Positions 9,710 to 50,848 of a stretch of 50,914 bases of DNA are shown in pieces; position 1 is the first letter of the stretch, and the number at the start of each line of letters is the position of its first letter. The DNA is from a virus (lineage: Duplodnaviria > Caudoviricetes). Under the pieces are notes generated by a model. That model searched no databases and had not been told where the DNA came from. It saw only the letters and a program-made list of their open reading frames with translations. Position numbers and translations under genes: made by a program. The stretch spans positions 1 to 50,914 of IMG/VR virus record IMGVR_UViG_3300047560_001018. The stretch is one strand, 5' to 3'.

Positions 9710-9793
9710 GCCCGGACTGGTGTTAAAGCTTTGGTGTCTTCCTTTCTTTCTCCTTTCTGTTAGCTGATGCAAGTTCGATTCTTGCTCCGGGCA
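9710..9793 (+). ncRNA. tRNA-like RNA with anti-Shine-Dalgarno polypyrimidine tract replacing the anticodon arm
   Basis: 7-bp acceptor stem GCCCGGA/TCCGGGC plus A; perfect T arm GCAAG-TTCGATT-CTTGC; no D stem or anticodon stem-loop; central TCTTCCTTTCTTTCTCCTTTCT. Confidence 0.75.
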
Positions 9794-9865
9794 CAAACTG
9801 CATGCTCTCCGTAAGTGGCCGGCATGTGGGTCCTGTAGTGTAGCCAAGGCAGCTGCAGGATATTT

Positions 9866-9937
9866 TGCCCCTTAGCTCAATGGCAGAGCAGGAAGCTGTT
9901 AACTTCAAGGTTGTTGGTTCGAGTCCAGCAGGGGCAG
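9866..9937 (+). tRNA. tRNA-Asn (GTT)
   Basis: Acceptor TGCCCCT/AGGGGCA, D arm GCTC/GAGC, anticodon loop CTGTTAA, T arm GTTGG-TTCGAGT-CCAGC, discriminator G; CCA not encoded. Confidence 0.92.
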
Positions 9938-9965
9938 CGGGAGAAACATACATAAAGGAGGATAC

Positions 9966-12161
9966 ATGAAGACAGCGGATTTCTTTTCTGCAGTATTTGG
10001 CGATGGCCGTGGACTAGCAACTATCGTAACCAAAGGTGCTACTGGCGAACTAACTGAGCAGCGGTTCTACGAGTATCCAGAGCGCAAAGATGAGATGATC
10101 GCATACTGCAATCTGCACACTCGCGAAGATGTTTACTTCTCACCAATTCTTTTCAACTCGCCACGTCGCATTAAAGAAAATGCTAAGACTGTATCAGTTA
10201 TCTATTCCGATGCAGATACTTGCGAGCCAGACAACTTCTTGATCGAGCCTTCGATCGTCGTGCAGACCTCGCCAGATCGCTGGCACACATACTGGATGCT
10301 GACTGAAGAGACAGATCCACAGGTAGCTGCACTTCTATCCAAGAAGATCGCACACGCCCATGCCCACCAAGGCTGTGACAAATCAGGCTGGAATACCACT
10401 AAGCTTCTCCGTGTGCCAAACTCGATGAACCTGAAGCGTGAACCATTTAGCGTTACGGCCGTTAGCAACGGATCACTATACACGCTTGATGATATCGAGC
10501 TGCACTATGGTGATGTTGAAGTTGAACCAATTCGGGAACTGACAATCTCAGAATTCCCACCAGAATTCCCAGACCTCATGACTACACTGAATAAGGTCCA
10601 GAGTAATCCGGAAGTGCTTGGCTTGTATATCAACGAGCCTTCTCCGAATGCAGACTGGTCCAAACTTCTGTGGAAGCTAGAGATCGCCTTGTATCGCCAA
10701 GGCCTAAGTGAGCGAGAGGTATTTGTTGTATGTCGCGGTGCGAAGTGCAACAAGTATCACTCACCGCTACGACCAAAGCGTATGGATGCAGATGGCGATC
10801 TATGGCGTGAAGTGCAGCGAGCGCACCAGTCGTTTGTTGCAGAGGGCGGAATGCTTGAGCCAGTGCGTATCGAGCCACTCGACACCATTGTTATCTCGCA
10901 GGAGCCCGAACGAGCTGTATTCTTAAGCGACGACGAGCGTTCTTTGGTCATGGAGACGCCCACGTTCGTGGATGAATATCTAGGATGGGCCACATCGAAG
11001 ACGGACGGTGCGATCAGTTATCAGATCGCTAGTGCATTTACTGCGCTATCGTGCGTATTCTCCGACATTGGTTATGCTGTGCCGAAGTACGGACGTATGG
11101 GCCTGAATCTGTGGTTTATGGTGCTAGGTGAAACAACTCTTACTCGTAAGTCAACTAGCCGCAACCTTATGTTGCGACTGATTCGCGAGTATGAAAAGTT
11201 CTCTGGCTACCAGATCGACATTGGTTCGGATGCAACGCCGGAAGGTGTTACATCTATCCTTTCTGAGCGAGACGGAAAGACTTCCCTATTGCACAGAGAT
11301 GAAGTCCAAGGTATGTTTAAGGACTTCATGAACAAAACCTACATGGCCTCAGCAGCCGAGCGATTCACTGAATTGTATGACGGCCATGTTCCGGTTGTAA
11401 TCCGATCAGGCAAGGGCAAGTCCCAGACTGAGCGAGCAACCACAAACTTCGTGATGTATCTTATGGGTATCGGATCGAAGACAGCTGATGTTCTCACTAC
11501 TGAGTACTTTAAGTCTGGCTTCTTGGCACGTTTCATTTATGTTACAGCCAAGACGCCAGACCGTACTCGTGAGATGGAGGATATCCAACAGGCAGAAGAG
11601 CATGAAGCGATCATTAAAGATGGTAAGCTAGACTCTTTGGTTAAGTCCCTTTATGGCGCAGTTACCTACTGGCAGAAGAAGGGCTCGCCAATGCCGCGAC
11701 CGATCCGATTGGATCACTCGGCACTGGAGCGGTTCAACCGATTCAAGTGGGAGATGGGCAACTTTGCTGAGTCTCACCCAGAATACGAATCGATCGAACC
11801 TAGCCGACAGCGACTAGCACTATCTGTTTGGAAGTGTGCAATCCTGTTGGCCATGTATGATCAGTCAGATGAAGTAAGACTTAAGCATATGCTTATTGCT
11901 ATTTACTATTCTGAAGACTGGTTTGCCAACCTAACTGAGATGGCTAGCGCTATCTCAAACTCTGAATGGCAGCGCGACGTCGACAAGCTCGAAGCGTTGG
12001 TCATGGATAAGGGTGGGCGAATTCGTTATGAAGAAGCGTATCGCAAGTTTAACAACAAGCGCAAGCGCGAATTCGACGAAATGGTACAGGCCCTGCAATC
12101 GCAGGCGCGTGTGCAGCAAGTAATAGAAAACCAGAAAACGTATTTGGAGGTGATTGGATAA
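9966..12161 (+). CDS. DNA primase (RepB-like/prim-pol N-terminus) fused to a DUF3987-like P-loop domain
   Basis: YSDAD, VQTSPDRWHTYW, LLRVPNSMN primase motifs; C-terminal GETTLTRKST, RDE, SGFLARF. Confidence 0.85.
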   Translation: MKTADFFSAVFGDGRGLATIVTKGATGELTEQRFYEYPERKDEMIAYCNLHTREDVYFSPILFNSPRRIKENAKTVSVIYSDADTCEPDNFLIEPSIVVQTSPDRWHTYWMLTEETDPQVAALLSKKIAHAHAHQGCDKSGWNTTKLLRVPNSMNLKREPFSVTAVSNGSLYTLDDIELHYGDVEVEPIRELTISEFPPEFPDLMTTLNKVQSNPEVLGLYINEPSPNADWSKLLWKLEIALYRQGLSEREVFVVCRGAKCNKYHSPLRPKRMDADGDLWREVQRAHQSFVAEGGMLEPVRIEPLDTIVISQEPERAVFLSDDERSLVMETPTFVDEYLGWATSKTDGAISYQIASAFTALSCVFSDIGYAVPKYGRMGLNLWFMVLGETTLTRKSTSRNLMLRLIREYEKFSGYQIDIGSDATPEGVTSILSERDGKTSLLHRDEVQGMFKDFMNKTYMASAAERFTELYDGHVPVVIRSGKGKSQTERATTNFVMYLMGIGSKTADVLTTEYFKSGFLARFIYVTAKTPDRTREMEDIQQAEEHEAIIKDGKLDSLVKSLYGAVTYWQKKGSPMPRPIRLDHSALERFNRFKWEMGNFAESHPEYESIEPSRQRLALSVWKCAILLAMYDQSDEVRLKHMLIAIYYSEDWFANLTEMASAISNSEWQRDVDKLEALVMDKGGRIRYEEAYRKFNNKRKREFDEMVQALQSQARVQQVIENQKTYLEVIG

Positions 12162-12565
12162 TGGATCGTAACGAAGCATTGAAGGTAGCATCAGCACTGA
12201 ATGAAGCTATCTGGCTGAGAGATAACATCCACCTGCTATCCCGCGTGGATGTCGAGGATGGTGTAAAGCGGCTAGCTGTGTTCGGTGTGTTCTCCAACCG
12301 CCAGATACAAGCTATTACAGCGGGCCGGGTAAGCCATCAGTCAGTTGCTCGCATAACAGGCAAGAGCAACAAGTCTGGTGGCAGCCTGAACCCGGGCTCA
12401 CTAGAGCTACTACGTTCTGTGCTATACCGCCGAGCAGAATCAGAGTCAGACTTTGACCTGATCTCACAGGCGGTAGAGCTCGGAACATCACAACACATGG
12501 TTGCAAAGCTAACCGGCGTAAGCCAAAGCACAATTAGCAAGAAACTTAAGGAGGACAATGGCTGA
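12161..12565 (+). CDS. double-HTH DNA-binding protein
   Basis: SNRQIQAITAGRVSHQSVAR and SQHMVAKLTGVSQSTISK. Confidence 0.75.
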   Translation: MDRNEALKVASALNEAIWLRDNIHLLSRVDVEDGVKRLAVFGVFSNRQIQAITAGRVSHQSVARITGKSNKSGGSLNPGSLELLRSVLYRRAESESDFDLISQAVELGTSQHMVAKLTGVSQSTISKKLKEDNG

Positions 12566-12725
12566 TCTAATGTCACGCAAAGCCAAGTTTGAGGAAGTAA
12601 AGCAAGATACAAAGGCTCTGCGATTCCACTGCGATCGCTATGAGTCTGGAGCTACTGACAAGCTGGCAAAGCAGTGCTATCAGTATCTACGAATCCTGAA
12701 GGAGGCCTACGGTGTGGAAGTCTAG
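12558..12725 (+). CDS. hypothetical protein (55 aa, MADLMSRK...YGVEV)
   Basis: Hand-translated, AAGGAGG RBS. Confidence 0.65.
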   Translation: MADLMSRKAKFEEVKQDTKALRFHCDRYESGATDKLAKQCYQYLRILKEAYGVEV

Positions 12726-13158
12726 ACTGCTATGCCTCGATCCGGGTGGCACAACTGGTGTTGCCCTGCTAGAGTATGATGAAGAAACTGCGCCAAGCAT
12801 TATTTGGCACAAGCAGATCGAAGGCGGCCTGCAGGGCTTCCTAAATTTTCACTGGGATCAGTTGCAAGACTGGCTCTATAGTGAGATCATCTGCGAGTCA
12901 TTCACTCTCCGTGAAGGAGTCTACGGTGTAGACCTATCGCCAACGTACATAATCGGGGCACTAGAGGCCTTACACGAGTTGGATGATATTATCTATCAGG
13001 AACCGTCAATGAAGCCTCTATGCGACGATGAGCGCCTTAAGAAGATGGGTCTATATACACCGGGCCGAGGACATGCAATGGATGCTGTTCGTCATGGTGT
13101 TATCTACCTCCGCAACAAAAAGCACAAGCCTACGCTGGAAGCTGGGTGGAAGGAGTAA
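12712..13158 (+). CDS. RuvC-like Holliday junction resolvase
   Basis: CLDPGGTTGVA, ICESF, HAMDAVRH. Confidence 0.85.
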   Translation: MWKSRLLCLDPGGTTGVALLEYDEETAPSIIWHKQIEGGLQGFLNFHWDQLQDWLYSEIICESFTLREGVYGVDLSPTYIIGALEALHELDDIIYQEPSMKPLCDDERLKKMGLYTPGRGHAMDAVRHGVIYLRNKKHKPTLEAGWKE

Positions 13159-13159
13159 T

Positions 13160-13897
13160 ATGAAGATTCTATTCTTGGATCTGGAGACAAGCCCCAACAT
13201 GGCATATGTTTGGGGATTGTTCAACCAGAATGTGTCTATCAACCAAATGGTAAAGTCAACCGAAGTGATCTGCTTCGGAGCAAGGTGGAATGGTGAAAAG
13301 AAAGTTACCTTCAAGTCTGTACACCATGACGGTAAAGAAGCGATGCTTGATTCGCTTTGGGAACTTGTTAATGAGGCTGATGTACTTGTGGGCTGGAATA
13401 GCCAAAGCTTTGACTCTAAGCACATTAAGCGAGAGCTCCTTGAAAATGGCTACACCCCACCGTCACCGTACAAAGAGCTTGATCTCATGCGTGTTGTGCG
13501 TTCACAGTTTAAGTTCCCGTCAAACAAACTCGATTATGTGGCGCAAAAGCTTGGAGTTGGTGCTAAAGTTAAGCACTCGGGTTTTGATCTATGGGTCGCT
13601 TGCATGGCAGGAGACAACAAAGCATGGGCGGAAATGAAGAAGTATCAGATTCAGGACGTAGACCTGCTGATCGACCTTTACGATAAGCTGCTACCTTGGA
13701 TCAAGAACCACCCGAATCGAGCACTACACGACGATGTTCCAGATGGCTGCCCAAACTGTGCGTCAACCAACATGGAGCGACGCGGCTTTAGCTACACTAC
13801 CGTAGCTAAATACCAGCGCTACCAGTGCAAGAACTGTGGGAAGTGGACGCGTGGCGGTACTGCGGTATCTAACGTCGCTCTTCGCTCGGCTGTTTAA
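13160..13897 (+). CDS. DnaQ/RNase H-like 3'-5' exonuclease with C-terminal Zn ribbon
   Basis: LDLET (ExoI), WNSQSFD (ExoII), YQIQDV (ExoIII), CPNC...CKNC; AAGGAG RBS before 13160. Confidence 0.88.
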   Translation: MKILFLDLETSPNMAYVWGLFNQNVSINQMVKSTEVICFGARWNGEKKVTFKSVHHDGKEAMLDSLWELVNEADVLVGWNSQSFDSKHIKRELLENGYTPPSPYKELDLMRVVRSQFKFPSNKLDYVAQKLGVGAKVKHSGFDLWVACMAGDNKAWAEMKKYQIQDVDLLIDLYDKLLPWIKNHPNRALHDDVPDGCPNCASTNMERRGFSYTTVAKYQRYQCKNCGKWTRGGTAVSNVALRSAV

Positions 13898-14198
13898 GCG
13901 CAACTATGTGGAGGTGGGCTTGTTAAAAGAGCTCCCTCCACTTGTTGTTCCAGCGGGATATGAGGAGCATGTGTTGCATATGTACAGCGAAGAGATGGAC
14001 GCGAATGTTATTGTCCATCTAGTGTGCGCCTGTGACGCTCCATCATTCAAGAAGATTGATCGAGATGAATATACCTGTATCCATTGCGATAATCCATGCA
14101 ATGTGGTAGACTGCATCAGATGTAAAGCATTGGATGAATTCGATAACTACGAATTCCCAGCAGATGAGATCGGTGGTGAAGAAGATTCCGACGTATGA
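13851..14198 (+). CDS. Cys-rich hypothetical protein (start uncertain)
   Basis: CAC, CIHC, C...CIRC motifs. Confidence 0.55.
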   Translation: MAVLRYLTSLFARLFKRNYVEVGLLKELPPLVVPAGYEEHVLHMYSEEMDANVIVHLVCACDAPSFKKIDRDEYTCIHCDNPCNVVDCIRCKALDEFDNYEFPADEIGGEEDSDV

Positions 14199-14376
14199 TT
14201 ATGAATGCAAAGATTGCAAAACCAAGCTGTCAATCGTCGCAAACATTAAGGATACAGTTACTGAACCGGCTTGTGAAGATTGTAAAAAAGCAATGACTCG
14301 CAAGTATAACTTTGGCGCAGTGACATTTAAGGGTTCAGGTTTCTACCGGACCGACAGAAATAAGAAGGAGGAGTAA
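14176..14376 (+). CDS. FmdB-family zinc ribbon protein
   Basis: PTYDYECKDC...CEDC...FKGSGFYRTD signature. Confidence 0.85.
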   Translation: MKKIPTYDYECKDCKTKLSIVANIKDTVTEPACEDCKKAMTRKYNFGAVTFKGSGFYRTDRNKKEE

Positions 14377-14561
14377 TGCCGTATTACATTAGCAAGACAC
14401 AAAAAGATTGCAAAGGCCGTTGGGCTGTGATCAGTTCGGATAAGAAGATTCATGGCTGTCACCCAAACAAGCAGGCAGCGATTGCACAGATGGTTGCCAT
14501 CTCGATTGCTCAGAAGATGGATCCGGGTGGCACTTGGCCGGGCGACAAGAAGGCTAAATAA
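14376..14561 (+). CDS. conserved small phage protein (MPY...GCH...AIAQ family)
   Basis: AAGGAGGAG RBS, coupled start. Confidence 0.75.
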   Translation: MPYYISKTQKDCKGRWAVISSDKKIHGCHPNKQAAIAQMVAISIAQKMDPGGTWPGDKKAK

Positions 14562-14944
14562 TGCAGGCCTACGATCTAGTTGACACACTCGTAAAGATCG
14601 ACTACTCAGTCCACAATACTGCACAAATGGTAGCTAACATTAAAGAAGCAAAGGTCATTCATCGGCCGACTGGTAACTTTATTATTATCACTGCTCAGCC
14701 AGATATCCCAGCTGTGCATAGTGCCGTTAGCGCAATGGTTAATGACAATTTTCCAAACTGCCAGCGAGTAGTATTTGTTAGTGGATCAGAAGCTCAAGTT
14801 GCAGAGAAAAAGGCTGGAGTTATTAAGCGTAATAACATCACTGACTTCACCGATAACAATCGTGCGATTCTAGCGAAGATCAAAGAGCTGGTTCCAGATG
14901 TAACCCTATGGGTTATGACTGGTTCTGGCAAGAAGAAATATTAG
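14561..14944 (+). CDS. degenerate HAD-fold-like protein
   Basis: AYDLVDTL resembles HAD motif I; IITAQ, K and FTDNN resemble motifs II-IV. Confidence 0.5.
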   Translation: MQAYDLVDTLVKIDYSVHNTAQMVANIKEAKVIHRPTGNFIIITAQPDIPAVHSAVSAMVNDNFPNCQRVVFVSGSEAQVAEKKAGVIKRNNITDFTDNNRAILAKIKELVPDVTLWVMTGSGKKKY

Positions 14945-14951
14945 GAGGAAC

Positions 14952-15368
14952 ATGGCAAAGATTAATGTGATTGGGAATGTTCCAGCGTATGCACAGATTG
15001 GTGACGCAGGGGCTGATCTAGTCTCAACCGAGGAGCTAACGCTTACTCCGGGACAGACAAAGCTTGTAAAGACTGGAACGTCAATTGCAATTCCAGAGAG
15101 TATGGTCGGTATGGTCTGCTCACGATCAGGGCTATCGCTGAAGAACAGTATCTTTGTGCTTAACGCACCGGGAATCATCGACTCTGGATACCGTGGAGAG
15201 ATCGGCGTTATCTTGCACAATGCAAGCGAAGACTGGTTCCCGATTAAACCGGGCGACCGTATTGCTCAGCTAGTATTTGTACGACACGTTGTTGCGGAAT
15301 TCAACGAGGTTAATTCGCTGGATGCAACTGAGCGTGGAGACAGCGGCTTTGGATCGACGGGAGTATAG
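14952..15368 (+). CDS. dut: trimeric dUTPase
   Basis: AGADL, RSGL, GIIDSGYRGE, RIAQL, RGDSGFGSTG (motifs I-V). Confidence 0.97.
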   Translation: MAKINVIGNVPAYAQIGDAGADLVSTEELTLTPGQTKLVKTGTSIAIPESMVGMVCSRSGLSLKNSIFVLNAPGIIDSGYRGEIGVILHNASEDWFPIKPGDRIAQLVFVRHVVAEFNEVNSLDATERGDSGFGSTGV

Positions 15369-16054
15369 TGAAGTACAGGACCGATGTTACAGTTGATCTT
15401 ATTGATGCTATGGCTTCTGACGATATCATCGTCAAGGCGGCTCGAGTTTCTACTGGTGCTAGTGACAATAAAGATCGTGACGCTGGGCTCATTAACTATC
15501 TAATGCGTGACCGCCACGGCTCACCATTCGAACACGCCGTGTTCACGTTCCGCATCGAAGCACCAATCTTCGTGTTCCGTGAGTTTATGCGTCACCGCAT
15601 GGCCTCGTATAATGAGGAGAGCGGCCGATACAAGGAGCTCGAGCCCGTGTTCTACGTTCCGGGTGGTAAGCGTAATCTGATTCAGATTGGCAAGCCGGGA
15701 GCTTATGAGTTCATTCCGGGCACAGAAGAGCAGCATGACCTAGTTGTTGAGTCAATCATCAGTGCGTCAAAGGAAGCATACAATCGCTACGAGAGTATGC
15801 TGGCAGCTGGCATTGCGCGTGAGGTTGCTCGTGTTGTACTACCAGTCAATATTTATTCATCGATGTATGTAACAATGAACGCACGATCGCTGATGAATTT
15901 CTTGAGTCTTCGCACCAAGGATGATAATAGCGCATTCCCTTCGTTCCCGCAGCGTGAGATCGAGATGGTTGCCGAAAAGATGGAAGCAATCTTCTCTGGC
16001 TGGATGCCAGCTACTCATGCTTCATTTGTAAAGAATCGGAGGGTTGCACCATAA
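15368..16054 (+). CDS. thyX: flavin-dependent thymidylate synthase
   Basis: HGSPFEH, RHRMASYNEESGRY, AREVARVVLP. Confidence 0.97.
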   Translation: MKYRTDVTVDLIDAMASDDIIVKAARVSTGASDNKDRDAGLINYLMRDRHGSPFEHAVFTFRIEAPIFVFREFMRHRMASYNEESGRYKELEPVFYVPGGKRNLIQIGKPGAYEFIPGTEEQHDLVVESIISASKEAYNRYESMLAAGIAREVARVVLPVNIYSSMYVTMNARSLMNFLSLRTKDDNSAFPSFPQREIEMVAEKMEAIFSGWMPATHASFVKNRRVAP

Positions 16055-16263
16055 TGACAGATGCAGTAAATCATCCGCCGCATTACACTAGCGATCCAAG
16101 TGGAGTGGAGTGCATTACCATTGTGCGACATAGAAACTTTGCAATCGGCAATGCGATTAAGTATCTATGGCGAGCTGGACTAAAAGACGGCAACTCTGAT
16201 ATTCAAGATTTGCGTAAAGCAATCTGGTATATTGAAGACGAGATCAAACGACTCGAAAATTAA
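16054..16263 (+). CDS. DUF3310 protein
   Basis: VNHPPHY...GNAIKYLWRAG.K...DLRKAIWY. Confidence 0.9.
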   Translation: MTDAVNHPPHYTSDPSGVECITIVRHRNFAIGNAIKYLWRAGLKDGNSDIQDLRKAIWYIEDEIKRLEN

Positions 16264-16325: not shown

Positions 16326-16589
16326 CTACATTAGTAGGAGGCCTACAACCATTGCCGCAACTGAGATGATCGACAATGCTAGGGCAACACTGCCCTTAGC
16401 CGAGGTGCGCTGAGTCTTGAGCTCACGCACATCCATTTCAAGCTCACGAATGTCTTTCTTGACATCGTTAATTTCTTCTTTTTGAGCGTTCTGGTTTTGC
16501 TCCAGACGCTCCATTCCCTCACGCAAGAAGCGAACCCCTTCTTCAATGCGCCCAATAGCTACTAATACTTCAGTGTAGTCGTCCGGCAT
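16326..16589 (-). CDS. coiled-coil protein with C-terminal TM helix (lysis cassette)
   Basis: Heptad repeats then a hydrophobic C-terminus; follows holin and endolysin. Confidence 0.7.
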   Translation of the reverse strand: MPDDYTEVLVAIGRIEEGVRFLREGMERLEQNQNAQKEEINDVKKDIRELEMDVRELKTQRTSAKGSVALALSIISVAAMVVGLLLM

Positions 16590-16939
16590 TAGCGCAGGTC
16601 GTCCCCGTCAAGCAACTCTTCAAGATCGCCAAATACATCCTCGATCTCCAGAGTCTTCTTAGCTGAAGTTTCAACTGCTCCAGCTACATCCTTATTATCA
16701 GCTGCCTGCTTGGCAACTGCAGCCCGGAAGCCCTTCTCAATGTCTTCTTGTGATACGTTAGCATCCCATGCCAGCTGAACGCCAAAGAAGATAATGATCG
16801 ACGAGAATACGGTAGCTACACCATTAAGCGCACCAAGCAGCGGGCCAATGCCAGTTGCTGCGCCAGTAGCCATTCCGGGAATAGCGGCAAACATGATCAC
16901 ACCAAGTGATCGAGTCAGTAGTTCCTTAAGCTTCTTCAT
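16589..16939 (-). CDS. putative holin
   Basis: Two hydrophobic segments, charged C-terminus, adjacent to endolysin. Confidence 0.6.
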   Translation of the reverse strand: MKKLKELLTRSLGVIMFAAIPGMATGAATGIGPLLGALNGVATVFSSIIIFFGVQLAWDANVSQEDIEKGFRAAVAKQAADNKDVAGAVETSAKKTLEIEDVFGDLEELLDGDDLR

Positions 16940-17385
16940 TACTTAGCTGCCTTTGCTCTTGCGAGCTGAGCGGCAATTACCTTCTTAAGGAAGCCGTCAG
17001 CGTCATATACTTTACCACCGAATACGCCATTCACATTGAGTGAAAGCGTAAGGTGAAGATGAACGCCCGATGATGCAGATCCAGTTGTTCCGGCAAAACC
17101 GATAACCTGACCCGACTTTACTTTAGTCCCCACTTTAAGCGCACAAGGCAGCTGCATGTGGCAGTAGCCAAAGAAGTGCTTGCCAATCTGAAGCACAACA
17201 ACATTGCCCAAGATAGCGCTTTCCTTAACGATGGCGATCACGCCATCGTTAACGGCCAGCAGCGGGGTACCAGCCTTGAAACCATTATAGTCACAACCAC
17301 GGTGGCCGTTTGGATGCCAGTCGTCGACAACACCGAATGCTGGACCGCGGTTAAACTTACCCTTAAGAGGCATTACCCAAGTCAT
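16939..17385 (-). CDS. endolysin, M23 peptidase
   Basis: HRGCD, YCHM, HLH Zn-binding motifs; G.TG.SSGVHLH. Confidence 0.9.
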   Translation of the reverse strand: MTWVMPLKGKFNRGPAFGVVDDWHPNGHRGCDYNGFKAGTPLLAVNDGVIAIVKESAILGNVVVLQIGKHFFGYCHMQLPCALKVGTKVKSGQVIGFAGTTGSASSGVHLHLTLSLNVNGVFGGKVYDADGFLKKVIAAQLARAKAAK

Positions 17386-17386
17386 A

Positions 17387-17746: not shown

Positions 17747-17773
17747 GTTAAACCTCTTTACTATTGTATCTGG

Positions 17774-43066: not shown

Positions 43067-43083
43067 GTTATACCTTTCGATTA

Positions 43084-43215: not shown

Positions 43216-44726
43216 TACCAGCTCCACCCCGAGAGGAAGGGGTCTCTTGAGTCGAGCTCAAGATGGTCGAATGTCACCAGATCACCGGGCTTTTTATCTG
43301 CGTATGGTGATTCAATGATTCGGCTTAGATCTGCAGTGGCGTAAACCAGCGCATCCAAGTGGTCCGGAGACTTAACTCCGCGTGATCTCATATCGTCCTT
43401 TGACTCAATCTGAATCGCACCCTTCTGAGTGAACTTATATTGAATCATCAGCAGTTCTTCTAGAAGAACCTTGTCATCCGGATCAAGATCAACCTTGCCT
43501 GAAGATAGACCTTCTTTGAGGTTGTCATAATTCGCTGCACGAGCGTTAAGCCAGCGCATTTTGTCAGGAGACGCAGCAGAGCCGAGCATAGAGATAACCA
43601 GATAACGGTCCCCAGCAAGGCTAGCAACCAGATCCACAACAGGACCACCAAGGCCAGCAGCGTCAATACGAACTTCACTGGCCCCGTTGTCGATCGCAAG
43701 GTGGTGAATACGGTTCGCAGTTTCAATAGCTGTTGCTTTATTCCAGTGATCAACTTTTCGGCACCTTCCGCCTCGATTAATGTAAACTACAGAGTCGTCC
43801 TCACCAAAGCGAGCGACGTCCACGCCGAGCACACACTGGTATTCCATGTCCTCTGGGATGTCAGTGTCAATACCAGAGTCGATGTTGCTCTGTGTGAAGA
43901 ATGTATTGTCAGCTTCGTCCGGGAACTCAGCTAACACCTTGGAGCGGAATCGCGCAGAATCCTCACCCCATGAGATCTTCTGCTTCTCAACCCATGCAGG
44001 CTGAATCAGTAGTGGTAGCAGATCTTCCGGAACTTCATCCTTTTCATCGGTGAAGTTTGGAGTATCATATGCCGAGATCTTCAGCTTGTTCCACGTTGGG
44101 TCATCGCGGAAGATCTTGTGGAATGGAGTGCCTCGGTTATCCGGGTTTCCAATCGCAAGTACTCGCGCACCTTCAGTGTTGGTGACTGCTTCAGTAGCGG
44201 TATACAGGTCTTCTGGAATACCACCAGCCTCGTCAAGGATAACCATGACGTATCGGCGGTGGATACCCTGAAACGCACTAACAATGTCCTTATCGGCCGG
44301 TCTACGACCGAACGCGATCACTGTACCATCGTCAAGCTTCCATTCCTGACCCTGCGTGATATAGCCGGGCATCGGGTGGCCGTTCTGCTTCGCAAGCTTA
44401 AAGTTATCTCCCAGCTCGCGGAACAGCACTCGGGCGATCTGTACATACGTTGGAGCTGAACAGATCAGCGCAACGTCATACGGATCATGGGTAGCAATCC
44501 ACCATACGCCAAGCATTCCAGCAAGACCAGACTTGCCAGCACCGTTGCAAGAGACCACAGCAGTGTGGGAATGGTGTACCACACTCTGTGCAATCTCACG
44601 CTGCTTAGACCACATGTGCTTGCCTAGCACCTCTTTAGCCCATAGTGCTGGGTCAGTGAGGTACTCAGCCTTCTTGGAGCGCTTTCGCAAGTCCGCGATC
44701 ACATTGTCAAATACGTTATCTATCAA
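43215..44726 (-). CDS. terL: terminase large subunit
   Basis: SCNGAGKS Walker A, ILDEA Walker B, AIGNP, GVDVARFGED, SPDHLDA nuclease motifs. Confidence 0.95.
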   Translation of the reverse strand: MIDNVFDNVIADLRKRSKKAEYLTDPALWAKEVLGKHMWSKQREIAQSVVHHSHTAVVSCNGAGKSGLAGMLGVWWIATHDPYDVALICSAPTYVQIARVLFRELGDNFKLAKQNGHPMPGYITQGQEWKLDDGTVIAFGRRPADKDIVSAFQGIHRRYVMVILDEAGGIPEDLYTATEAVTNTEGARVLAIGNPDNRGTPFHKIFRDDPTWNKLKISAYDTPNFTDEKDEVPEDLLPLLIQPAWVEKQKISWGEDSARFRSKVLAEFPDEADNTFFTQSNIDSGIDTDIPEDMEYQCVLGVDVARFGEDDSVVYINRGGRCRKVDHWNKATAIETANRIHHLAIDNGASEVRIDAAGLGGPVVDLVASLAGDRYLVISMLGSAASPDKMRWLNARAANYDNLKEGLSSGKVDLDPDDKVLLEELLMIQYKFTQKGAIQIESKDDMRSRGVKSPDHLDALVYATADLSRIIESPYADKKPGDLVTFDHLELDSRDPFLSGWSW

Positions 44727-45226
44727 GCTGACTCTTCCTCAAGAATCTCATACTTTGCTCGCACAAGGCCGTCAGCCACCAGTTCATCCAGCTCATAGCT
44801 TGGGATATCAGGGTACTTAGCTGCCAGTTCCTTTTTAGCAAAGTTCAGCGCAGAGTCCATGGCTCGCAGCAAGATGCGCTCCTGAAAGCGAGTTAGCTTT
44901 AGCAGGTTCTCGTCGATCTCAACCTTCTGGGAATCAAGTCGCTTGCCAATGAGCTCAAGCGTCTTTAGCAGCAGTCGTGCAGACTCCGGGTCACCATTCT
45001 TAATGGCGGCTCCCTGCAGCGACTCCTTAAGCTCCTGTAGCTCCTGCAAAAGCAGCAATCGCTGTTCGTGCTCGGTCCAAATGTCCCGGCTTGCTAGTAG
45101 CTGCTTAACGTGCTGTACGGCCTGATCTGCAGGAATGCCGGTCAGTCGCTCAATCTCTACACCAGACTTACCACCTGCTGCTGATCGCAGCAGTAGATCG
45201 TCTAGTACTGATATCTCTTTGCCCAT
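44723..45226 (-). CDS. putative terminase small subunit
   Basis: N-terminal HTH, helical, directly upstream of TerL. Confidence 0.7.
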   Translation of the reverse strand: MGKEISVLDDLLLRSAAGGKSGVEIERLTGIPADQAVQHVKQLLASRDIWTEHEQRLLLLQELQELKESLQGAAIKNGDPESARLLLKTLELIGKRLDSQKVEIDENLLKLTRFQERILLRAMDSALNFAKKELAAKYPDIPSYELDELVADGLVRAKYEILEEESA

Positions 45227-45423
45227 TACAAGCCCTTCAAATGGTTATCTCGTTTGGCGGTTCCGATCGATGCGCCGATAATGTCCTTCAGCGTAGTAAT
45301 CTGCGACTGCAGGTCGTTCACAACCTCGAATAGCTGTGCGATTGCTTGGTCCATCTCTTGCACAGTGGGGAGGTAGTCATTGCCTTGCTGCTGTGGGATC
45401 GGATCAGTTAGACCCCGGCTCAC
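45226..45423 (-). CDS. hypothetical coiled-coil protein
   Basis: Coupled ORF. Confidence 0.6.
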   Translation of the reverse strand: MSRGLTDPIPQQQGNDYLPTVQEMDQAIAQLFEVVNDLQSQITTLKDIIGASIGTAKRDNHLKGL

Positions 45424-45656
45424 GCGATCAGTCCTTCATTGGTTGCTCGCCACTGTGATGGGGTGTGGTTGTCCTCGATCTGAGTCTTCATCTCAACGTC
45501 CTCGTATAGGCGAATGACGTGCATACATGGGTCATTGCCGTCTTCGAACTCCTGGAACTCAAGATCGGACATTGGCAGTCCGTCGTGAGTGTAGCAGACC
45601 GATGGTCCGCACCAGCCATTGTCGTATCCTTGTTGTAGCCATTCTTTAAATGTCAT
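45420..45656 (-). CDS. conserved hypothetical protein (W.C.P.VC.THDG.P...DPC.H..R)
   Basis: GGAGG RBS; putative metal-binding Cys/His residues. Confidence 0.75.
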   Translation of the reverse strand: MTFKEWLQQGYDNGWCGPSVCYTHDGLPMSDLEFQEFEDGNDPCMHVIRLYEDVEMKTQIEDNHTPSQWRATNEGLIA

Positions 45657-45895
45657 TGTATTGCCTCCGCTTCAGTTTTGTATGTGTAAATTGCTTCATT
45701 AATAATATCCCAGATCTCAAATTCTGTTGATGGATCCATCTCAAAATAGACCTCCCAGAGTGTCTCTGGTGCATCATTGTCTTCTTTGAATACGCCACGC
45801 CAAACCTCGATCTCGTTTTCGCCAGCTGCGTCAATTAGATCAAGGGATAGGGTTGCTTTGCCGTATCCTTCTAGGGTGATAAGTATTTCGCTCAT
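45653..45895 (-). CDS. acidic hypothetical protein, probably leaderless
   Basis: TGTGGTAGGAT -10 ends 7 nt before ATG 45895. Confidence 0.7.
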   Translation of the reverse strand: MSEILITLEGYGKATLSLDLIDAAGENEIEVWRGVFKEDNDAPETLWEVYFEMDPSTEFEIWDIINEAIYTYKTEAEAIQ

Positions 45896-46184
45896 GAGAT
45901 ACATCCTACCACAAGATTGCTACAAAGTCCAAAAGATTTAAAAATACCGGCGAAAAATTTTTTATAGGTCATTTTGATCGTTAAAGAAATGGATGGAATT
46001 TTTTACAGATCAGCTTGGAATTTTTGCGCGGTTGTGCGCCGCCCAGGATCCGCCTAGCTGCTGGAATAAAAAGATTTGTTTCCCCTGGTTTTTTGATTGC
46101 GCGGATCTAAATTGCCATGCTAACTTTGTTCTTGTCGCCGAGGATGACGGGTTAGCCCGAAGGATTCCGAGAGCCGACTTGAAA

Positions 46185-46200
46185 CTTGAAAACTCAACAG
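46185..46200 (+). promoter_or_regulatory. boxA-like antitermination element
   Basis: CTTGAAAACTCAACAG resembles the actinobacterial rrn-leader boxA region (TTGAGAACTCAAYAG). Confidence 0.6.
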
Positions 46201-46297
46201 AGATACACGAAGCGCCTAATCGGATTCTAGGCCTAGGGATTAAATGCCCTAGGTTTAGTGGCTGGATTAGCCGAACAACCTAGAGAAAGAAAGACCT

Positions 46298-46459
46298 ATG
46301 TTCACGAAGCCCGACTTGCGAGACGGCCTTTTTTACTGCGAGACCTGCGGTGAAGTCGAATTTACCGACAACTGCGGCGCATGGAATCGAATCCTTGACC
46401 CAATTTGTCCAACTTGCTTCGATGAATTGACCGAAGCCGAACAGGAAGACCGCTACTAA
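46298..46459 (+). CDS. small Zn-finger protein (CETC...CPTC), first gene of the + arm
   Basis: Hand-translated 53 aa, AGAAAG RBS. Confidence 0.7.
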   Translation: MFTKPDLRDGLFYCETCGEVEFTDNCGAWNRILDPICPTCFDELTEAEQEDRY

Positions 46460-46734
46460 TGAGCAAGCGCAACGCAACAACCGACTTTGTGCCAGTGCTT
46501 GGCATGACCTACGCAAACGAATACTTTGTTGGCGTAATCACCGAAGTTAGCGAGCGTCACACTGCCGCTAACGGCAAAGAACTTATCCGCTTCCAGATTG
46601 AGATTCAGGCAATCACAGACACCGCTCAGGCTATGGCTTTGAGCCTCGAGCCAGGGCAACGTGTCTGGCGTCAAGCAACCCCAACACACGCCGCAAACGG
46701 CCGCTGGAATGTAATGCGCAACGCTGGCCAGTAG
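46459..46734 (+). CDS. hypothetical protein
   Basis: TAATG-coupled ORF. Confidence 0.7.
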   Translation: MSKRNATTDFVPVLGMTYANEYFVGVITEVSERHTAANGKELIRFQIEIQAITDTAQAMALSLEPGQRVWRQATPTHAANGRWNVMRNAGQ

Positions 46735-46801
46735 GCTAGACTTAGACCTAGGCAAGTCTCTAAAAGGCCTATCCACAACCCAACAGAAAGAAAGAAAGAA
46801 C

Positions 46802-47044
46802 ATGACGCAAGCAACCGTGAATCATGCAATTGCCCGCTCGATTGCCGACCTAGTGACGGCCGCGATGACCGAGGCCCGAGACGGCTGGGAATACGAAGAC
46901 ACGCTGGCCCGTGTTGAGATGGCCGGATACCTCGATGGCATGACCCAGATGGCAATCCTTCTAGGCTTCGAAGTAGTAACGAAGGGCTCGGAAGAATTGA
47001 CCCTACTCGGCCGCGGCTACATCGAGAAGCTCGCCAACGCATAA
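46802..47044 (+). CDS. hypothetical protein
   Basis: AGAAAGAAAG leader. Confidence 0.75.
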   Translation: MTQATVNHAIARSIADLVTAAMTEARDGWEYEDTLARVEMAGYLDGMTQMAILLGFEVVTKGSEELTLLGRGYIEKLANA

Positions 47045-47116
47045 TAGCGACAACCAGCACCTACCGCCCTAGGCATGGCCTCTAAACTGCCTACACCTTC
47101 AAACAGAAAGACAATC

Positions 47117-47422
47117 ATGCACCCCGCAATCATCCACGCAATCAAGCGCCGCCAGGATTTTTCACTTGATCTATCGGCCGCCCGTATCGAAGGCCGAAGC
47201 CGTGACCTAATCACGCAAGACGGCCACGCCTACACGACCTACACCGTGTTTTATGACGGCGAAAAGGTTCTCTACTCGGCCGGCTACAGCACCCGCTTTA
47301 ACGATTTCGTGGCTATGCACTACACCGTTACCGACGAAGTGTTCGCCAGCGACTTCATGCTGAACCGATACCAGCGCGTTAACGCCGTGTCGGACGCGCT
47401 GGCCGAAGCTCTCGGCCTGTAG
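47117..47422 (+). CDS. hypothetical protein
   Basis: AGAAAG RBS before ATG 47117. Confidence 0.7.
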   Translation: MHPAIIHAIKRRQDFSLDLSAARIEGRSRDLITQDGHAYTTYTVFYDGEKVLYSAGYSTRFNDFVAMHYTVTDEVFASDFMLNRYQRVNAVSDALAEALGL

Positions 47423-47721
47423 CAAGTCGTGTAGGTTCAACTCTGGTTTTTTGCTAGAGTTGTTCCTAGGCAACTTGCCTAACCCAACTAGAGAAAGAAA
47501 GAAACATGGCAACCTTCACCGTAGTCGAGACCTACGTTTACAAGATTGAAGCCGAGTCGGCCAGCCAGGCCGAGGAATTGTTCGCGACCTACATGGCTGA
47601 GGATGACGACCGCCTACAGCTGATTGACAACCAGCTAGAAGTCGAGACCAACTAGCTCGAATCGTGTAGTTCAGCCCTAGACTTGTGCTAGGGTTGTTCT
47701 AGGCAATTCGCCTAACCCAAC
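47422..47721 (+). repeat. two copies (47422-47488, 47658-47721) of a long imperfect hairpin with covariation
   Basis: Shared CGTG/GGCA and TT/TT internal loops with compensatory stem changes, followed by GCCTAACCCAAC. Confidence 0.8.
47506..47655 (+). CDS. small acidic hypothetical protein (49 aa)
   Basis: Hand-translated MATFTVVETY...EVETN; GAGAAAGAAAG leader. Confidence 0.7.
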   Translation: MATFTVVETYVYKIEAESASQAEELFATYMAEDDDRLQLIDNQLEVETN

Positions 47722-47737
47722 AACAGAAAGAAAGAAT

Positions 47738-47962
47738 ATGAAGCACACACTTCGCCGCGCGATTGCTTCGGCTATCGCCATCCCATTCATCGCCGGGGCT
47801 AACGTCTTCGCCTACATGACGGCCGCGAGCCTGTTCCCTAGCGTGGACTCAATTGCCCGCCTAGTCGATTCCTACAACAGCGGCCTAGCGATTGCCGTTT
47901 CGGTCGCCGTCACCTTCACCTTCGGCCCGCAACTCAGCCGCGTCTTCGGATTCAACAAGTAG
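47738..47962 (+). CDS. two-TM membrane protein
   Basis: Two hydrophobic segments; AGAAAG leader. Confidence 0.7.
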   Translation: MKHTLRRAIASAIAIPFIAGANVFAYMTAASLFPSVDSIARLVDSYNSGLAIAVSVAVTFTFGPQLSRVFGFNK

Positions 47963-47974
47963 AGAGGATTCAAA

Positions 47975-48334
47975 GTGCCTGCACTAATTCAGATGGATGT
48001 AACAACCGAATACGCTTACAACAAGCGTCAAGCATGGGACAAAATCAAGCGCGAAAATCCTGAATGGTTCTCGCCTGAGAGTGTCGAGTTCTGGGGCACT
48101 CAGTGCCTATTTGACGCAATCCACCCAGTGGGTGCCGAGAATTACCTGTTCATTACCAGCGAGGATAACTTCGACCGCACGAAGAAGCTTTACTCGGTTC
48201 GCGAAGCATTCAATGGCGGCGGAATTCACACGCATGCATTTCAGGAATTCTCGGGCATCGAAACAGCATGGATCTATCTAGCGGCACTGGTTTACGAAGA
48301 ACAGACCGCTAGCGGAATCGAACAACGCTGGTAA
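47975..48334 (+). CDS. conserved phage hypothetical protein (WFS...FWG...FITSE...YSVR)
   Basis: GAGGA RBS, GTG start. Confidence 0.75.
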   Translation: MPALIQMDVTTEYAYNKRQAWDKIKRENPEWFSPESVEFWGTQCLFDAIHPVGAENYLFITSEDNFDRTKKLYSVREAFNGGGIHTHAFQEFSGIETAWIYLAALVYEEQTASGIEQRW

Positions 48335-48424
48335 ACGTGTCGTATAGTTGGGGCATAGCGTACGAAAGTGTGCTATGCTTCTTCTAGGCAACACGCCTAC
48401 ACAAAACACACAGAAGGAAAAAAC

Positions 48425-48622
48425 ATGGCATACACCGACATGAACACGGCATTCGTTAGCGCGGAGGGGGACTACTCGGCTTACCAGCGCGTGATTGTAT
48501 TCAACCCTCACGACCTATCAGACGACCAGTGGGAGACCCTCTCGGGCGTCTCAGACCGCGAGCGCATTCACTTCATCGAAGCTTGCCTGAACGGCCGCGA
48601 CACCAGCGAATGGGAGGGCTAG
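48425..48622 (+). CDS. hypothetical protein
   Basis: GAAGGA RBS; TGTGCTATGCT promoter upstream. Confidence 0.7.
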   Translation: MAYTDMNTAFVSAEGDYSAYQRVIVFNPHDLSDDQWETLSGVSDRERIHFIEACLNGRDTSEWEG

Positions 48623-48625
48623 AAC

Positions 48626-48727
48626 ATGGCCCGCCCAGACTCGAAGCGCACCATTCACGCGAAGGCTCGAGCAATCGACCTGCGCAAAGCCCGCACCCGC
48701 AAAGCTGTCTTCGGCACAAGCAAGTAG
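48626..48727 (+). CDS. small basic peptide (MARPDSKRTIHAKARAIDLRKARTRKAVFGTSK)
   Basis: Hand-translated, GGAGG RBS. Confidence 0.55.
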   Translation: MARPDSKRTIHAKARAIDLRKARTRKAVFGTSK

Positions 48728-49158
48728 GTGCAACCGGCCGACCCGTGGGAATCCGCCTTCGGGTTCGGCCAGGCCACCGATCTACGGCCGGCTAGCTTGA
48801 GATAACAATTCGATAACGGCACTTGACAAGCTGCACAAGCTCGGCTAAGCTAGAGCTACAAATAAAAAACGATCTATGGGTTTGGTCCGAAATGCCCGGT
48901 AATGCAACGGTTCAAAATCCACCCTACCCAAAATTGGAATATAACAATTTGGTAACATCGCTTGACACGGCGAGCGCTTTTCGCTAGGCTAGTTTTGATA
49001 CCCGTTTTGGAATATAACAATCCGGTAACAAAGCTTGACAACCGGCCGAGCTTATGCTATGCATCCGGCCGGCCAGGGCAATGTAACAATTTGGTAACGA
49101 AGCTTGACACAAAGCTAGATCCATGCTTAACTATTACTAACCAAACGAAAGGTATCTC

Positions 49159-49299
49159 ATGCACGTTTTCTATCGCGCTACTTTTAGCGATGGCGTTACT
49201 CGCAAAATCGAGCTAAACCAATTCCACCGCGTTGTATTTGCCCTTGAAAAGCAAGGCATTACTTGCACCCATTCGTGGGTTGACATCGAGCTAAACTAG
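49159..49299 (+). CDS. hypothetical protein (46 aa, MHVFYRATFSDG...)
   Basis: Hand-translated, GAAAGGT RBS. Confidence 0.6.
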   Translation: MHVFYRATFSDGVTRKIELNQFHRVVFALEKQGITCTHSWVDIELN

Positions 49300-49314
49300 A
49301 GATAGGCTAGAGAC

Positions 49315-50049
49315 ATGACTACTACACAACTAACCCTTAAGCGTTCTAAGGATCGCAAAGTCGCTAACGCCATCACGCCTAATGGCAAAGCGCCAGCGAT
49401 CGCCAACACCTTTGGATTGCCTAGCGGCAAAGCTTTCTCATGCCCGGGCGCGACAACCGTTTGCGAGAAGATCTGCTACGCGGGCAACCTTGAGAGGATC
49501 TACAAAGGTGTGAAGGATGTACTTTTGCACAATTGGCAAGCTCTCGAGAATGCCACCGAATCAGAAGCCACCGAGCTACTAGCCGCGATGATCGATGAAT
49601 TCCGCAAGGATTGCGACAAGCGCAACGCCGAGAAGCTATTCCGAATCCATTGGGATGGCGACTTTTTTAATGAGACTTACACGATCGCGTGGCGTAATGT
49701 AATCGAAGCTAACGCCGATATCCAATTTTGGGCATACACCCGAAGCGACTTCGCCGTTCCGCTATTGATCAATATTGACAACTTGAGCTTGTATTTCTCG
49801 ACCGACATGGCTAACCGCGTGTTGGGTATCAAGCTAAAGAAGCAATACGGCGTGAAGCTAGCTTACCTAGCCAACACTTTCGCCGAAGGTAAGTCCGACT
49901 TTGAGACCATTCAGGATAAGTCGCCGATTCCATGCCCTGAAAACAACCGCAAGCTAGCTTTGATCACCGACAAGGGATCGGCTTGCGTCACTTGCTCGCA
50001 GTGCGTGTTCAACCGCAACGACATTCTGTTTAGCGCAACCAAGAAATAA
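49315..50049 (+). CDS. GP88-family protein (radical-SAM-like Cys cluster), leaderless
   Basis: FGLP.G..SCPGAT..C...CYA, FRIHWDGDF, FWAYTR, CP...C..C..C; TTGACA-17-TAGGCT-6-ATG. Confidence 0.8.
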   Translation: MTTTQLTLKRSKDRKVANAITPNGKAPAIANTFGLPSGKAFSCPGATTVCEKICYAGNLERIYKGVKDVLLHNWQALENATESEATELLAAMIDEFRKDCDKRNAEKLFRIHWDGDFFNETYTIAWRNVIEANADIQFWAYTRSDFAVPLLINIDNLSLYFSTDMANRVLGIKLKKQYGVKLAYLANTFAEGKSDFETIQDKSPIPCPENNRKLALITDKGSACVTCSQCVFNRNDILFSATKK

Positions 50050-50587
50050 CAAGTTGATAACGGGGGTTGACAAGCTGGTTGATCCCCGTTAAACTTGTTT
50101 CATAATTTAAAAAGCGATAACAAAGTTTGGCCCGATAAGCTTAGTAAACACACGGGAGATAACCGGCCCTACCCTGTGCAACAACATAACGATTCGATAA
50201 CAACACTTGACAACCGACAACCTATCCACTAAGCTAGATCTGATACCCAATTCCAACATAACGAAACGATAACGGGCATTCTACAGGCTCGCATCCACTT
50301 TGTCAAGCCCGAAACGATAACAATCAGATCACAATCAACGAAGCCACCAGCGGCCGCTAGCGGGCTTTTCAGCTATTGGTTGGTATGATTCCCCATTCTA
50401 ATGGCTTCGTGGCTTCTACGGGCGTTTTACGGCGTTTTTGGATCTTTTGCCCTAGCTCTATAGATCATGGCACAGGCTTGCCGTTATCAATCCGTTATAA
50501 AAAAGTTTGGAAAAACACTTGACAAGCGTTTCGGCTGTGCTAGATTAGAGATATCAGGAAGCAAACAACACGAAAGGAATTCCCGAT

Positions 50588-50848
50588 ATGTATACGATCA
50601 ACGATCAAGCAACCGCCGAAAAGCTAGCCGCGTCTCAAGGTATCTGGAGCGTCTACTACTTGCTCGACAGCTACCGCGACCAGAGCGCACCGCTTGTTCT
50701 CATGAACGCTATGGGTCGTTGCTACCCACTGGGCGCAGATCTGGGCAACATGGACTTGAAGACGATTCAGATTCTGGGTCTCGCGCTTCAGACCTACGCG
50801 CTCTCACCCGATGAAGTCCACGACTTCGTGGATCGGTTTGTTGAGTAG
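50588..50848 (+). CDS. hypothetical protein
   Basis: GAAAGGA RBS, own promoter. Confidence 0.75.
   Translation: MYTINDQATAEKLAASQGIWSVYYLLDSYRDQSAPLVLMNAMGRCYPLGADLGNMDLKTIQILGLALQTYALSPDEVHDFVDRFVE

Follow-up and report, generated by a model that had tools for sequence, protein, structure and literature searches.

Two conserved small RNAs with Shine–Dalgarno-complementary loops, one on a tRNA-like body, in a family of freshwater phages

The DNA analysed here (the window) is the complete virus record IMGVR_UViG_3300047560_001018 with a length of 50,914 nt, divided by strand and gene content into three arms: a replication and nucleotide-metabolism ("middle") arm and a putative early arm, both on the plus strand, and a late arm on the minus strand (Table 1). 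The subject of this work is two short RNA genes, RNA1 in the middle arm and RNA2 in the late arm, whose loops resemble the 3' tail of 16S rRNA and are complementary to Shine–Dalgarno (SD) sequences in the ribosome-binding sites (RBS) of the phage itself. Their existence had been proposed in a preliminary description of this DNA and was corroborated by genome comparison: both are conserved structured RNA genes with predicted single-stranded, SD-complementary loops. The gene set used for all counts comprised 81 genes obtained by our own calling, with open reading frames below approximately 35 aa (e.g., 48626–48727) left out. The presence of a WhiB-like gene, together with the origin of the nearest terminases (40–46% identity) from phages of Arthrobacter, Curtobacterium, Clavibacter and Microbacterium, pointed to an actinobacterial host. 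Megablast of positions 9000–17000 against cultured phages gave a sole match of 50 nt in ThyX, and an IMG/VR scan with the primase/helicase recovered 66 related loci with 57–80% protein identity plus one near-identical strain (L042). This phage family is abundant in freshwater metagenomes.

RNA1 folds as a tRNA-like molecule without a D arm. It begins with a 7-bp acceptor stem (GCCCGGA/TCCGGGC), continues with a short linker (CUGG..) and a weak anticodon-like stem, and, after a long CU-rich single-stranded region, closes with a T arm (GCAAG-UUCGAUU-CUUGC) and the discriminator A. Two overlapping segments of its pyrimidine tract have different partners: positions 9742–9752 are complementary to GAGAAAGAAAG of the early leaders, and positions 9749–9758 agree in 9 out of 10 nucleotides with an assumed actinobacterial 16S 3' tail, not one read from the host.

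The covariance model built from 18 RNA1 homologs found exactly one copy per source in 60 of the 67 sources, i.e., the gene is single-copy, and all seven loci without a match begin inside or next to the primase gene. One copy was present in each of the ten complete or near-complete genomes and none in 70 unrelated loci. In the model-based alignment of 44 distinct sequences, 89.7% of the pair cells held standard pairs against 30–44% with slid partners, 17 of the 20 base pairs had changed on both sides, and the observed score was reached by none of 500 shuffles. The common plan includes an acceptor stem (pairs 1–5 paired in 100% of the cells, pairs 6–7 often unpaired), a linker of 5–9 nt with an invariant GG, a hairpin of 5–9 bp with a loop of 11–25 nt, and an abutting T arm, whose stem was 99.5% paired and whose loop GUUCGAUUC was nearly invariant; by analogy with the tRNA elbow, we take the GG linker to stand in for the D arm. 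Lone folding reached this three-helix shape with an unpaired loop in 9 of 16 representatives. Among the 40 unique loops (the count leaves out L010, L011, L018, L028, L033 and L034, all six of which were placed by the covariance model) the core CUCCU was present in every one and CUCCUUU in 31, with a mean pyrimidine content of 0.89; CUCUCCUCCUUUG is the loop of one relative. A plain anti-SD loop was found in 58 of the 60 sources, and the extension CUUUCUUUC occurred exclusively in the window and in the near-identical strain. The window RNA1 is, in this respect, an outlier of its family, with the longest loop, the extension and a weak hairpin stem.

Comparison with tRNA showed a mixed picture: RNA1 has the acceptor stem, T stem and discriminator of a tRNA, but departs from the cloverleaf (RF00005) in having no D stem and a long loop instead of a 7-nt anticodon loop. 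With its 66–84 nt it is also far from a tmRNA, which has a tag frame, pseudoknots and a length of about 300 nt or more. ARAGORN called only the tRNA-Asn in the window, recognising RNA1 neither as tRNA nor as tmRNA, and Rfam gave no family for RNA1 at the gathering score in the window, the best permissive match being tRNA-Sec (15.5 bits, E = 1.9); these results ruled out a true tRNA or tmRNA. An intron-bearing tRNA was rejected because of the shortness of the insert and because no known route would excise the loop. A further candidate, an attP core that reproduces the 3' half of a host tRNA, was rejected because the 5' acceptor strand covaries and no integrase was present among the proteins scanned (the Pfam scan covered 20 window proteins), and an inverted-repeat replication origin acting as DNA since the loop and the leader can be as much as 640 nt apart, with tRNA genes in between. 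Blastn of the RNA1 of a relative against cultured phages returned nothing meaningful.

Just upstream of RNA1 lies another hairpin, read by eye across the loci; its stem covaries, and its loop UGAYUUAAAACU is conserved in many relatives (L003, L005, L048 and others) at a distance of 4–8 nt before RNA1. Its possible functions are those of a (-10-like) promoter or of a processing element. Other relatives have at the same site either a different hairpin (GUGCG../..CGCAC) or a TGTATAAT box. Two more hairpins, one with CUCUCC in its stem-loop, occupy positions 9798–9860 between RNA1 and tRNA-Asn; they are unconserved, and the equivalent place in the relatives is taken by other spacers or extra tRNAs.

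RNA2 consists of a 5' hairpin, a GU-rich spacer and a terminator. Its fold had a z-score of -7.5, none of 200 shuffles folded as well, and the loop contains CCUCCUU. The unit was present in 10 of 10 genomes with the site on the contig (the window and G001–G009) and in at least three further contigs, always between the capsid gene and the collagen-like gene; G010, with a contig that stops at the capsid gene, was outside this count. In the 11 aligned sequences the -10 box invariably stood 6–8 nt before the hairpin, the loops contained CUCCU in all cases and CCUCC in nine, and the hairpin stems had unrelated sequences and yet were complementary. The alignment was one column out of register for some stems, and the stem evidence comes from our own parsing. 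Given a promoter box, a body, a terminator, no reading frame and conservation, RNA2 has the appearance of an independent, terminator-ended small RNA (sRNA) gene. The promoters of both RNAs look like the host-type (extended) -10 promoters found genome-wide. No Rfam family matched RNA2 at threshold, the best being 23S-methyl (RF01065; 27.9 bits, E = 0.008, positions 35580–35667, gathering score 50).

The surroundings of RNA2 vary among the relatives. An nrdH-nrdE-nrdF module (35691–39015) sits as an insertion between the capsid gene and RNA2 in the window; RNA2 follows the capsid gene directly in G003, G004, G006, G008 and G009, and G001 and G005 have a different gene of 569–677 aa at this place. 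Among the matches listed, most of them unrelated, the contigs L107/L171, L138 and L174 have a C-rich hairpin loop (CCCUCCCUCC-like) ahead of the same terminator core CCCCGUUGAGC..GCUCCGGGG, so RNA2-like units may reach beyond this phage family.

The types of RBS were divided by region, as had been claimed in the preliminary description. Motifs were scored at -22 to -4 from the start codon, with early genes defined as those at 46.3–50.6 kb, middle genes at 0.1–16.3 kb and late genes as those on the minus strand. GAAAG leaders preceded 7 of 11 early genes, 0 of 34 middle genes and 1 of 36 late genes (Fisher p = 7e-7), and GGAG or GAGG leaders in 1 of 11, 28 of 34 and 11 of 36, respectively (middle versus late p = 1.4e-5). 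The GAAAG leaders are not all independent events, as five of them lie within copies of a single intergenic repeat cassette. The exceptions listed earlier are all there (the portal with GAAAGG, 47975 with GAGG and 48626 with GGGAGGG), and nrdH and nrdE indeed have AAAGGAG. Across the family, the early genes are mostly of the GGAG type (57 of 88, counting the first eight genes per genome). The earlier mention of leaderless and weak-SD structural genes fits four late genes with starts at 34678, 33484, 29468 and 45653, where -10-like boxes (e.g., CGATAGAAT and AGGTAAAAT) end 4–9 nt before the ATG, which suggests that their mRNAs may be leaderless or nearly so; relatives have TGGTAGAAT at the same late-start position.

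The match of the window RNA1 to four of the early leaders is exact. The 10-mer AGAAAGAAAG accounts for six occurrences in the window, five in four early leaders and one, as the complement, in RNA1 (9742–9751), against a chance expectation of 0.16, and six were reached in none of 100 shuffles; the 10-mer and its complement co-occur only in the lineage of the window. The calculated duplex energies of the RNA1 loop were on average -12.0 kcal/mol with the early leaders (-12.2 to -15.5 with the four cassette leaders), -11.4 with the middle leaders (several at -14 to -16.6) and -7.3 with the late leaders. The modelled 16S tail, which may not be that of the host, gave about -5.7 with the cassette leaders and means of -9.4 with the middle and -7.0 with the late leaders. 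The RNA2 loop reached -4.7 kcal/mol with the GAAAG early leaders, -9 to -12.6 with the GGAG middle leaders and -3.7 to -11.1 with the late leaders, i.e., in its duplex energies it behaves like the 16S tail. Since RNA1 pairs about equally well with early and middle leaders, it is not class-specific and only RNA2 is selective. The earlier statement that the two RNAs are complementary to the first and the second RBS class, respectively, thus stands for RNA2, which prefers GGAG, and falls for RNA1, which pairs with both classes. The late genes were the least complementary set.

The co-evolution of loop and RBS sequences, suggested previously as a check, was followed across the relatives with RNA1. 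In 11 genomes, after removal of row and column means, the loops fitted the leaders of their own genome better than those of others for the early (p = 0.006) and middle genes (p = 0.0003) and for the primase leader (p = 0.0014), and such fit was absent for the late leaders (p = 0.79). With 33 distinct loops tested against their own primase leader, none of 20,000 permutations was as good, and with one representative for each of nine loop types the p values in three alternative sets were 0.0004, 0.025 and 0.010. Individual cases illustrate this: the L036/L062 loop ACCCUCCUCCCUG matches its own primase leader CAGGGAGGAGGAU, the L044 loop CUUCUUCUCC matches GGAGAAGAAG, and the UUUG end of many loops matches CAAAGGAG leaders, these extended matches falling outside the pairing reach of the 16S tail. 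Non-self perfect complements of at least 9 nt to the genome's own loop were found at 52 sites, 26 of which are at a called RBS (24 in the plus block and two late). The expectation was borne out for the plus strand in that own leaders fit better; the strongest partner, however, was the primase/helicase leader and not the early genes.

The reading we favour, at a little better than even confidence, is that RNA1 and RNA2 are two 16S-tail-like antisense RNAs repressing SD-led plus-strand phage genes, with RNA1 acting mainly on the primase/helicase. According to the proposed mechanism, RNA1 would be transcribed as the leading member of the tRNA cluster that directly precedes the primase/helicase gene, released in the manner of a tRNA by RNase P and a 3' nuclease, and stabilised by its tRNA body. 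RNA2, with a separate promoter-hairpin-terminator unit that follows the capsid gene in the late arm, would act as a free-standing sRNA. The open loops of both would pair in the cell with the SD leaders of plus-strand mRNAs and keep the 30S subunits off, the primase/helicase mRNA being the main target of RNA1. Because its loop gained the CUUUCUUUC extension, the window RNA1 probably also targets the AGAAAGAAAG leaders of four early genes, and the late mRNAs would be spared because of their weak SDs or almost absent leaders. Regulation by loop-leader pairing is likely, judging from the sequences compared, and the core idea of the preliminary description, namely RNAs that resemble the ribosomal anti-SD and are matched to the phage's own RBSs, gains comparative support. 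The proposal predicts that AGAAAGAAAG leaders would be repressed by the window RNA1 only and AAAGGAGG leaders by the RNA1 of the window and of a relative alike.

Several points weigh against this reading. The own-versus-other effect was modest, approximately 0.6–0.7 kcal/mol for the gene sets and 1.7–3.4 kcal/mol for the primase leader, it rests on perhaps 5–9 independent lineages, and some loops are misfits on their own primase leader (L007 with rank 21, L051 with rank 32 and L050 with rank 33 of 33). Much of the raw complementarity is unavoidable because any anti-SD-like loop matches any strong SD, and the start codons behind the leader scores were picked partly by complementarity to an assumed, not host-derived, 16S tail motif. 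The RNA1 of the window is the least typical member of its family, having the third-lowest score of the distinct sequences (47.5 bits), and its anticodon-like stem is weak. To act stoichiometrically as an SD sponge, the RNAs would have to be very abundant, and the public runs containing the window sequence were DNA only, labelled as freshwater metagenome, with no RNA run among them.

The arrangement proposed in the preliminary description was a strict cascade, in which a middle-phase RNA1 silences only the GAAAG early genes, a late RNA2 silences the GGAG middle genes, and host SD-led translation is shut off as well. It draws on the perfect 10–11 nt complementarity of the window RNA1 to four early leaders, where pairing is far stronger than that of the modelled 16S tail, on the preference of RNA2 for GGAG over GAAAG leaders, on the location of RNA1 in the replication arm and of RNA2 in the late arm, and on the late leaders being poor partners for both. 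The one-RNA-per-class logic is nevertheless not supported: RNA1 makes no distinction between middle and early leaders (single values down to -16.6 kcal/mol), the CUUUCUUUC extension that would provide the early specificity is absent from all of the family except the window and its near-identical strain, and in G001 and G005 leaders of the AGAAAG type in the early genes face ordinary anti-SD loops with no matching extension. Moreover, the early genes of the family are predominantly led by GGAG, and both RNAs have host-type -10 boxes. A class-for-class cascade is consequently a minority reading, and we regard it as unlikely.

A role of RNA1 in cis within the primase/helicase transcript also appears improbable. 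In such a scheme the loop would hide the downstream SD until the transcript is cut by RNase P or a 3' nuclease, and processing would set the level of translation. It would explain why RNA1 and the primase gene always share a strand, with RNA1 placed upstream, why in 13 of the 33 distinct loop types only 26–44 nt, free of any terminator, separate the end of RNA1 from the start codon, and why the primase/helicase leader has the strongest co-variation. In other genomes, however, RNA1 and the gene are separated by 1–4 tRNAs (115–643 nt), so that processing would uncouple them; furthermore, the preference for own leaders extends to other early and middle genes, and the window loop matches leaders 36 kb away.

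The third possibility is that the RNAs are protein decoys, mimics of the 16S 3' tail soaking up a defence or toxin nuclease of the MazF type that cuts the anti-SD, an RNase acting on 3' ends, or a protein of the ribosome or of initiation. The identity of 10 nt in RNA2 and 9 of 10 nt in RNA1 of the window with the assumed tail motif, the presence of UCCUU in 31 of the 40 RNA1 loops and the display of the same motif on two unrelated scaffolds would agree with this, but a fixed protein target would not demand loop extensions that co-vary with the genome's own leaders, UCCUU is absent from nine of the 40 loops, and no candidate protein partner was identified, which makes a decoy decidedly improbable. 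The absence of any regulatory role, with RNA1 as a decayed tRNA kept in its tRNA cluster for the sake of cluster processing and RNA2 as a transcriptional insulator between late units, a position between a terminator and a promoter that it does occupy, is hardly credible, given that CUCCU is invariant in all 40 RNA1 and all 11 RNA2 loops, in contrast to the freely varying stems, and that a decaying tRNA would not keep a pyrimidine loop of 11–25 nt across primases only 57–80% identical.

Table 1. Features of the window discussed in the text (SD, Shine–Dalgarno sequence; RBS, ribosome-binding site)
Feature	Position	Strand	Remarks
Replication/nucleotide-metabolism ("middle") arm	103..16263	+	Strong GGAG-type SDs; SNF2 helicase, WhiB, AAA_24, DUF669, DUF3987 primase/helicase, exonuclease, dUTPase, ThyX
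WhiB-like transcription factor gene	7200-7730	+ arm	Typical of actinobacteriophages
Hairpin GGUCA/UGACC just upstream of RNA1	9685..9705	+	Loop UGAUUUAAAAC; read by eye across loci
RNA1, tRNA-like without D arm	9710..9793	+	Fold; covariance model 47.5 bits, E = 4e-8; covariation over 44 distinct homologs
22-nt pure pyrimidine tract in RNA1	9737..9758	+	UCUUCCUUUCUUUCUCCUUUCU
tRNA-Asn (GUU)	9866..9938	+	Between RNA1 and primase gene; relatives have 0-4 tRNAs there
DUF3987 primase/helicase, leader and gene	9939..12161	+	Leader GGGAGAAACAUACAUAAAGGAGGAUAC; best co-varying candidate RNA1 target across the family
Late arm	16326..45904	-	Terminase, portal, capsid, nrdHEF insert, collagen-like protein, tape measure; SDs mostly weak or absent
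RNA2, ~80 nt	35580..35659	-	5' hairpin CGCGGA/UCCGCG (35639-35659), loop UACCUCCUU (35645-35653), GU-rich spacer, terminator
RNA2 terminator hairpin	35589-35624	-	Unusual core GUUGAGC..GCUCCG, kept in the 11 aligned sequences; U tract 35580-35588
Extended -10 box of RNA2	35665..35673	-	TGATATAAT
Putative early arm	45993..50848	+	Small genes, TTGACA-type promoters, repeated intergenic cassettes, weak AGAAAG-type RBS
Early leader AGAGAAAGAAAGACCU	46283..46297	+	ATG at 46298
Early leader AGAAAGAAAGAAAGAAC	46785..46801	+	ATG at 46802
Early leader CAGAAAGACAAUC	47102..47116	+	ATG at 47117
Early leader AGAGAAAGAAAGAAAC	47491..47505	+	ATG at 47506
Early leader AGAAAGAAAGAAU	47725..47737	+	ATG at 47738

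Other features of the window concern its early arm, a gene next to the primase and the ends of the record. The cassette has the order of a hairpin, then CCTAGGCAA..GCCTAACCCAAC and then AGAAAGAAAGAA; its copies in the early arm (46215–48427) include a hairpin without a U tract, a small palindrome CTAGGCAAnnnGCCTA, CCCAAC and the AGAAAG leader. Five of the 11 occurrences of CCTAGG in the window fall within 46232–47465. Further downstream, at 48798–50334, there are six to seven copies of a motif of 18–20 nt (ATAACAATTYGGTAAC-like), each immediately preceding a TTGACA promoter, which resemble operators for a phage or host regulator. The gene following the primase (12130–12565) encodes a helix-turn-helix (HTH)-like protein of 134 aa; its SD UGGAGGUGAUU reaches -17.5 kcal/mol in pairing with the 5' part of the assumed anti-SD tail, its pairing with RNA1 or RNA2 being much weaker, and the leader is kept in G001 and G005, so this gene might escape any anti-SD RNA. 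At the right end of the window (50850–50914) the sequence consists, oddly, of A and T only (TATATTATATTATAATAATATATATATTAATATATAAGATAATAA), and at the left end (1–60) it is AT-rich too, for which a genome terminus or an assembly edge could be the explanation.

Translation control in phages is known mainly through proteins, such as RegB, RegA and gp32 of T4, and the phage antisense RNAs known to us so far are gene-specific. The c4 RNA of P1 and P7 comes from the same transcript as the genes under its control. The loops of this antisense RNA are described as pairing around the RBS of the target mRNA and blocking its translation (PMC12197685), and its precursor as a substrate of RNase P (PMC11143913). 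RNA1 would be similar to c4 as a phage antisense RNA directed at an RBS and putatively cleaved by RNase P, with a tRNA-like body and complementarity to a downstream leader that fit this model. It differs in having a near-complete tRNA body with a T arm, in a generic anti-SD seed in place of a gene-specific sequence and in its occurrence in lytic-looking actinophages; the Rfam family of c4 gave no match at E ≤ 10 over 9650–9960, nor at the gathering score over the window. The T4 nuclease RegB is reported to cut within GGAG and to inactivate early T4 mRNAs (PMC1702504; PMC3014915). The likeness would be that an SD-defined class of phage mRNAs is silenced in a time-dependent manner, and the difference lies in the effector, which in T4 is a protein nuclease aided by the ribosomal protein S1 and here would be an RNA acting by pairing. 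None of the 20 window proteins scanned against Pfam was RegB-like, and no search aimed at RegB was made.

In design, RNA2 is closest to sRNAs with C-rich hairpin loops, such as the 6C RNA of Mycobacterium and Streptomyces and the staphylococcal Rsa RNAs and RNAIII, for which chaperone-free pairing with the G-rich SDs of several mRNAs has been described (PMC6486639, PMC2837412). It has the same succession of a loop and a terminator, but those are host and not phage RNAs, and the RNA2 loop is a literal anti-SD core and not a run of C. The 6C model of Rfam matched neither the RNA1 or RNA2 regions nor the rest of the window. Examples of tRNA-derived scaffolds include the D-armless mitochondrial tRNAs, the tRNA-like domain of tmRNA, the engineered "tRNA scaffold" RNAs and the stable RNAs C and D of the T4 tRNA cluster. 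In an account of this principle, the acceptor/T-arm body provides processing and stability and the anticodon arm bears another function (PMC3753655). RNA1 is distinguished from all of these by having no 7-nt anticodon loop, D stem, tag reading frame or G3:U70 pair and by its cargo, an anti-SD-like loop. A literature search in full texts found no report of a natural tRNA-shaped anti-SD RNA, and a review of phage sRNAs from 2025 does not contain the term "tRNA". Both RNAs are new to the databases searched and, by the tests run, are members of none of the families compared.

A wider scheme is possible, and we put it forward tentatively as the less probable extension of repression by loop-leader pairing. 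Two mimics of the 16S 3' tail would constitute a family-wide, RNA-only translational programme, in which the phage's own early and replication leaders, together with the SD leaders of the host, are sequestered and the ribosomes shift to the weak-SD or nearly leaderless late mRNAs. One of the mimics would be a D-armless tRNA whose anticodon loop was turned into an anti-SD seed, the seed evolving with the leaders and having acquired a second, AGAAAG specificity in the lineage of the window.

What distinguishes this phage family is a pair of conserved RNAs that both contain the mRNA-docking sequence of the ribosome, one being built on a tRNA scaffold, and a loop that tracks the leaders of the phage. 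If the proposed pairing is true, RNA1 would be a natural "tRNA-scaffold" antisense RNA and would exemplify the evolution of a regulator from a tRNA gene, and the two RNAs would represent a simple and portable way to repress SD-dependent initiation in Actinobacteria.

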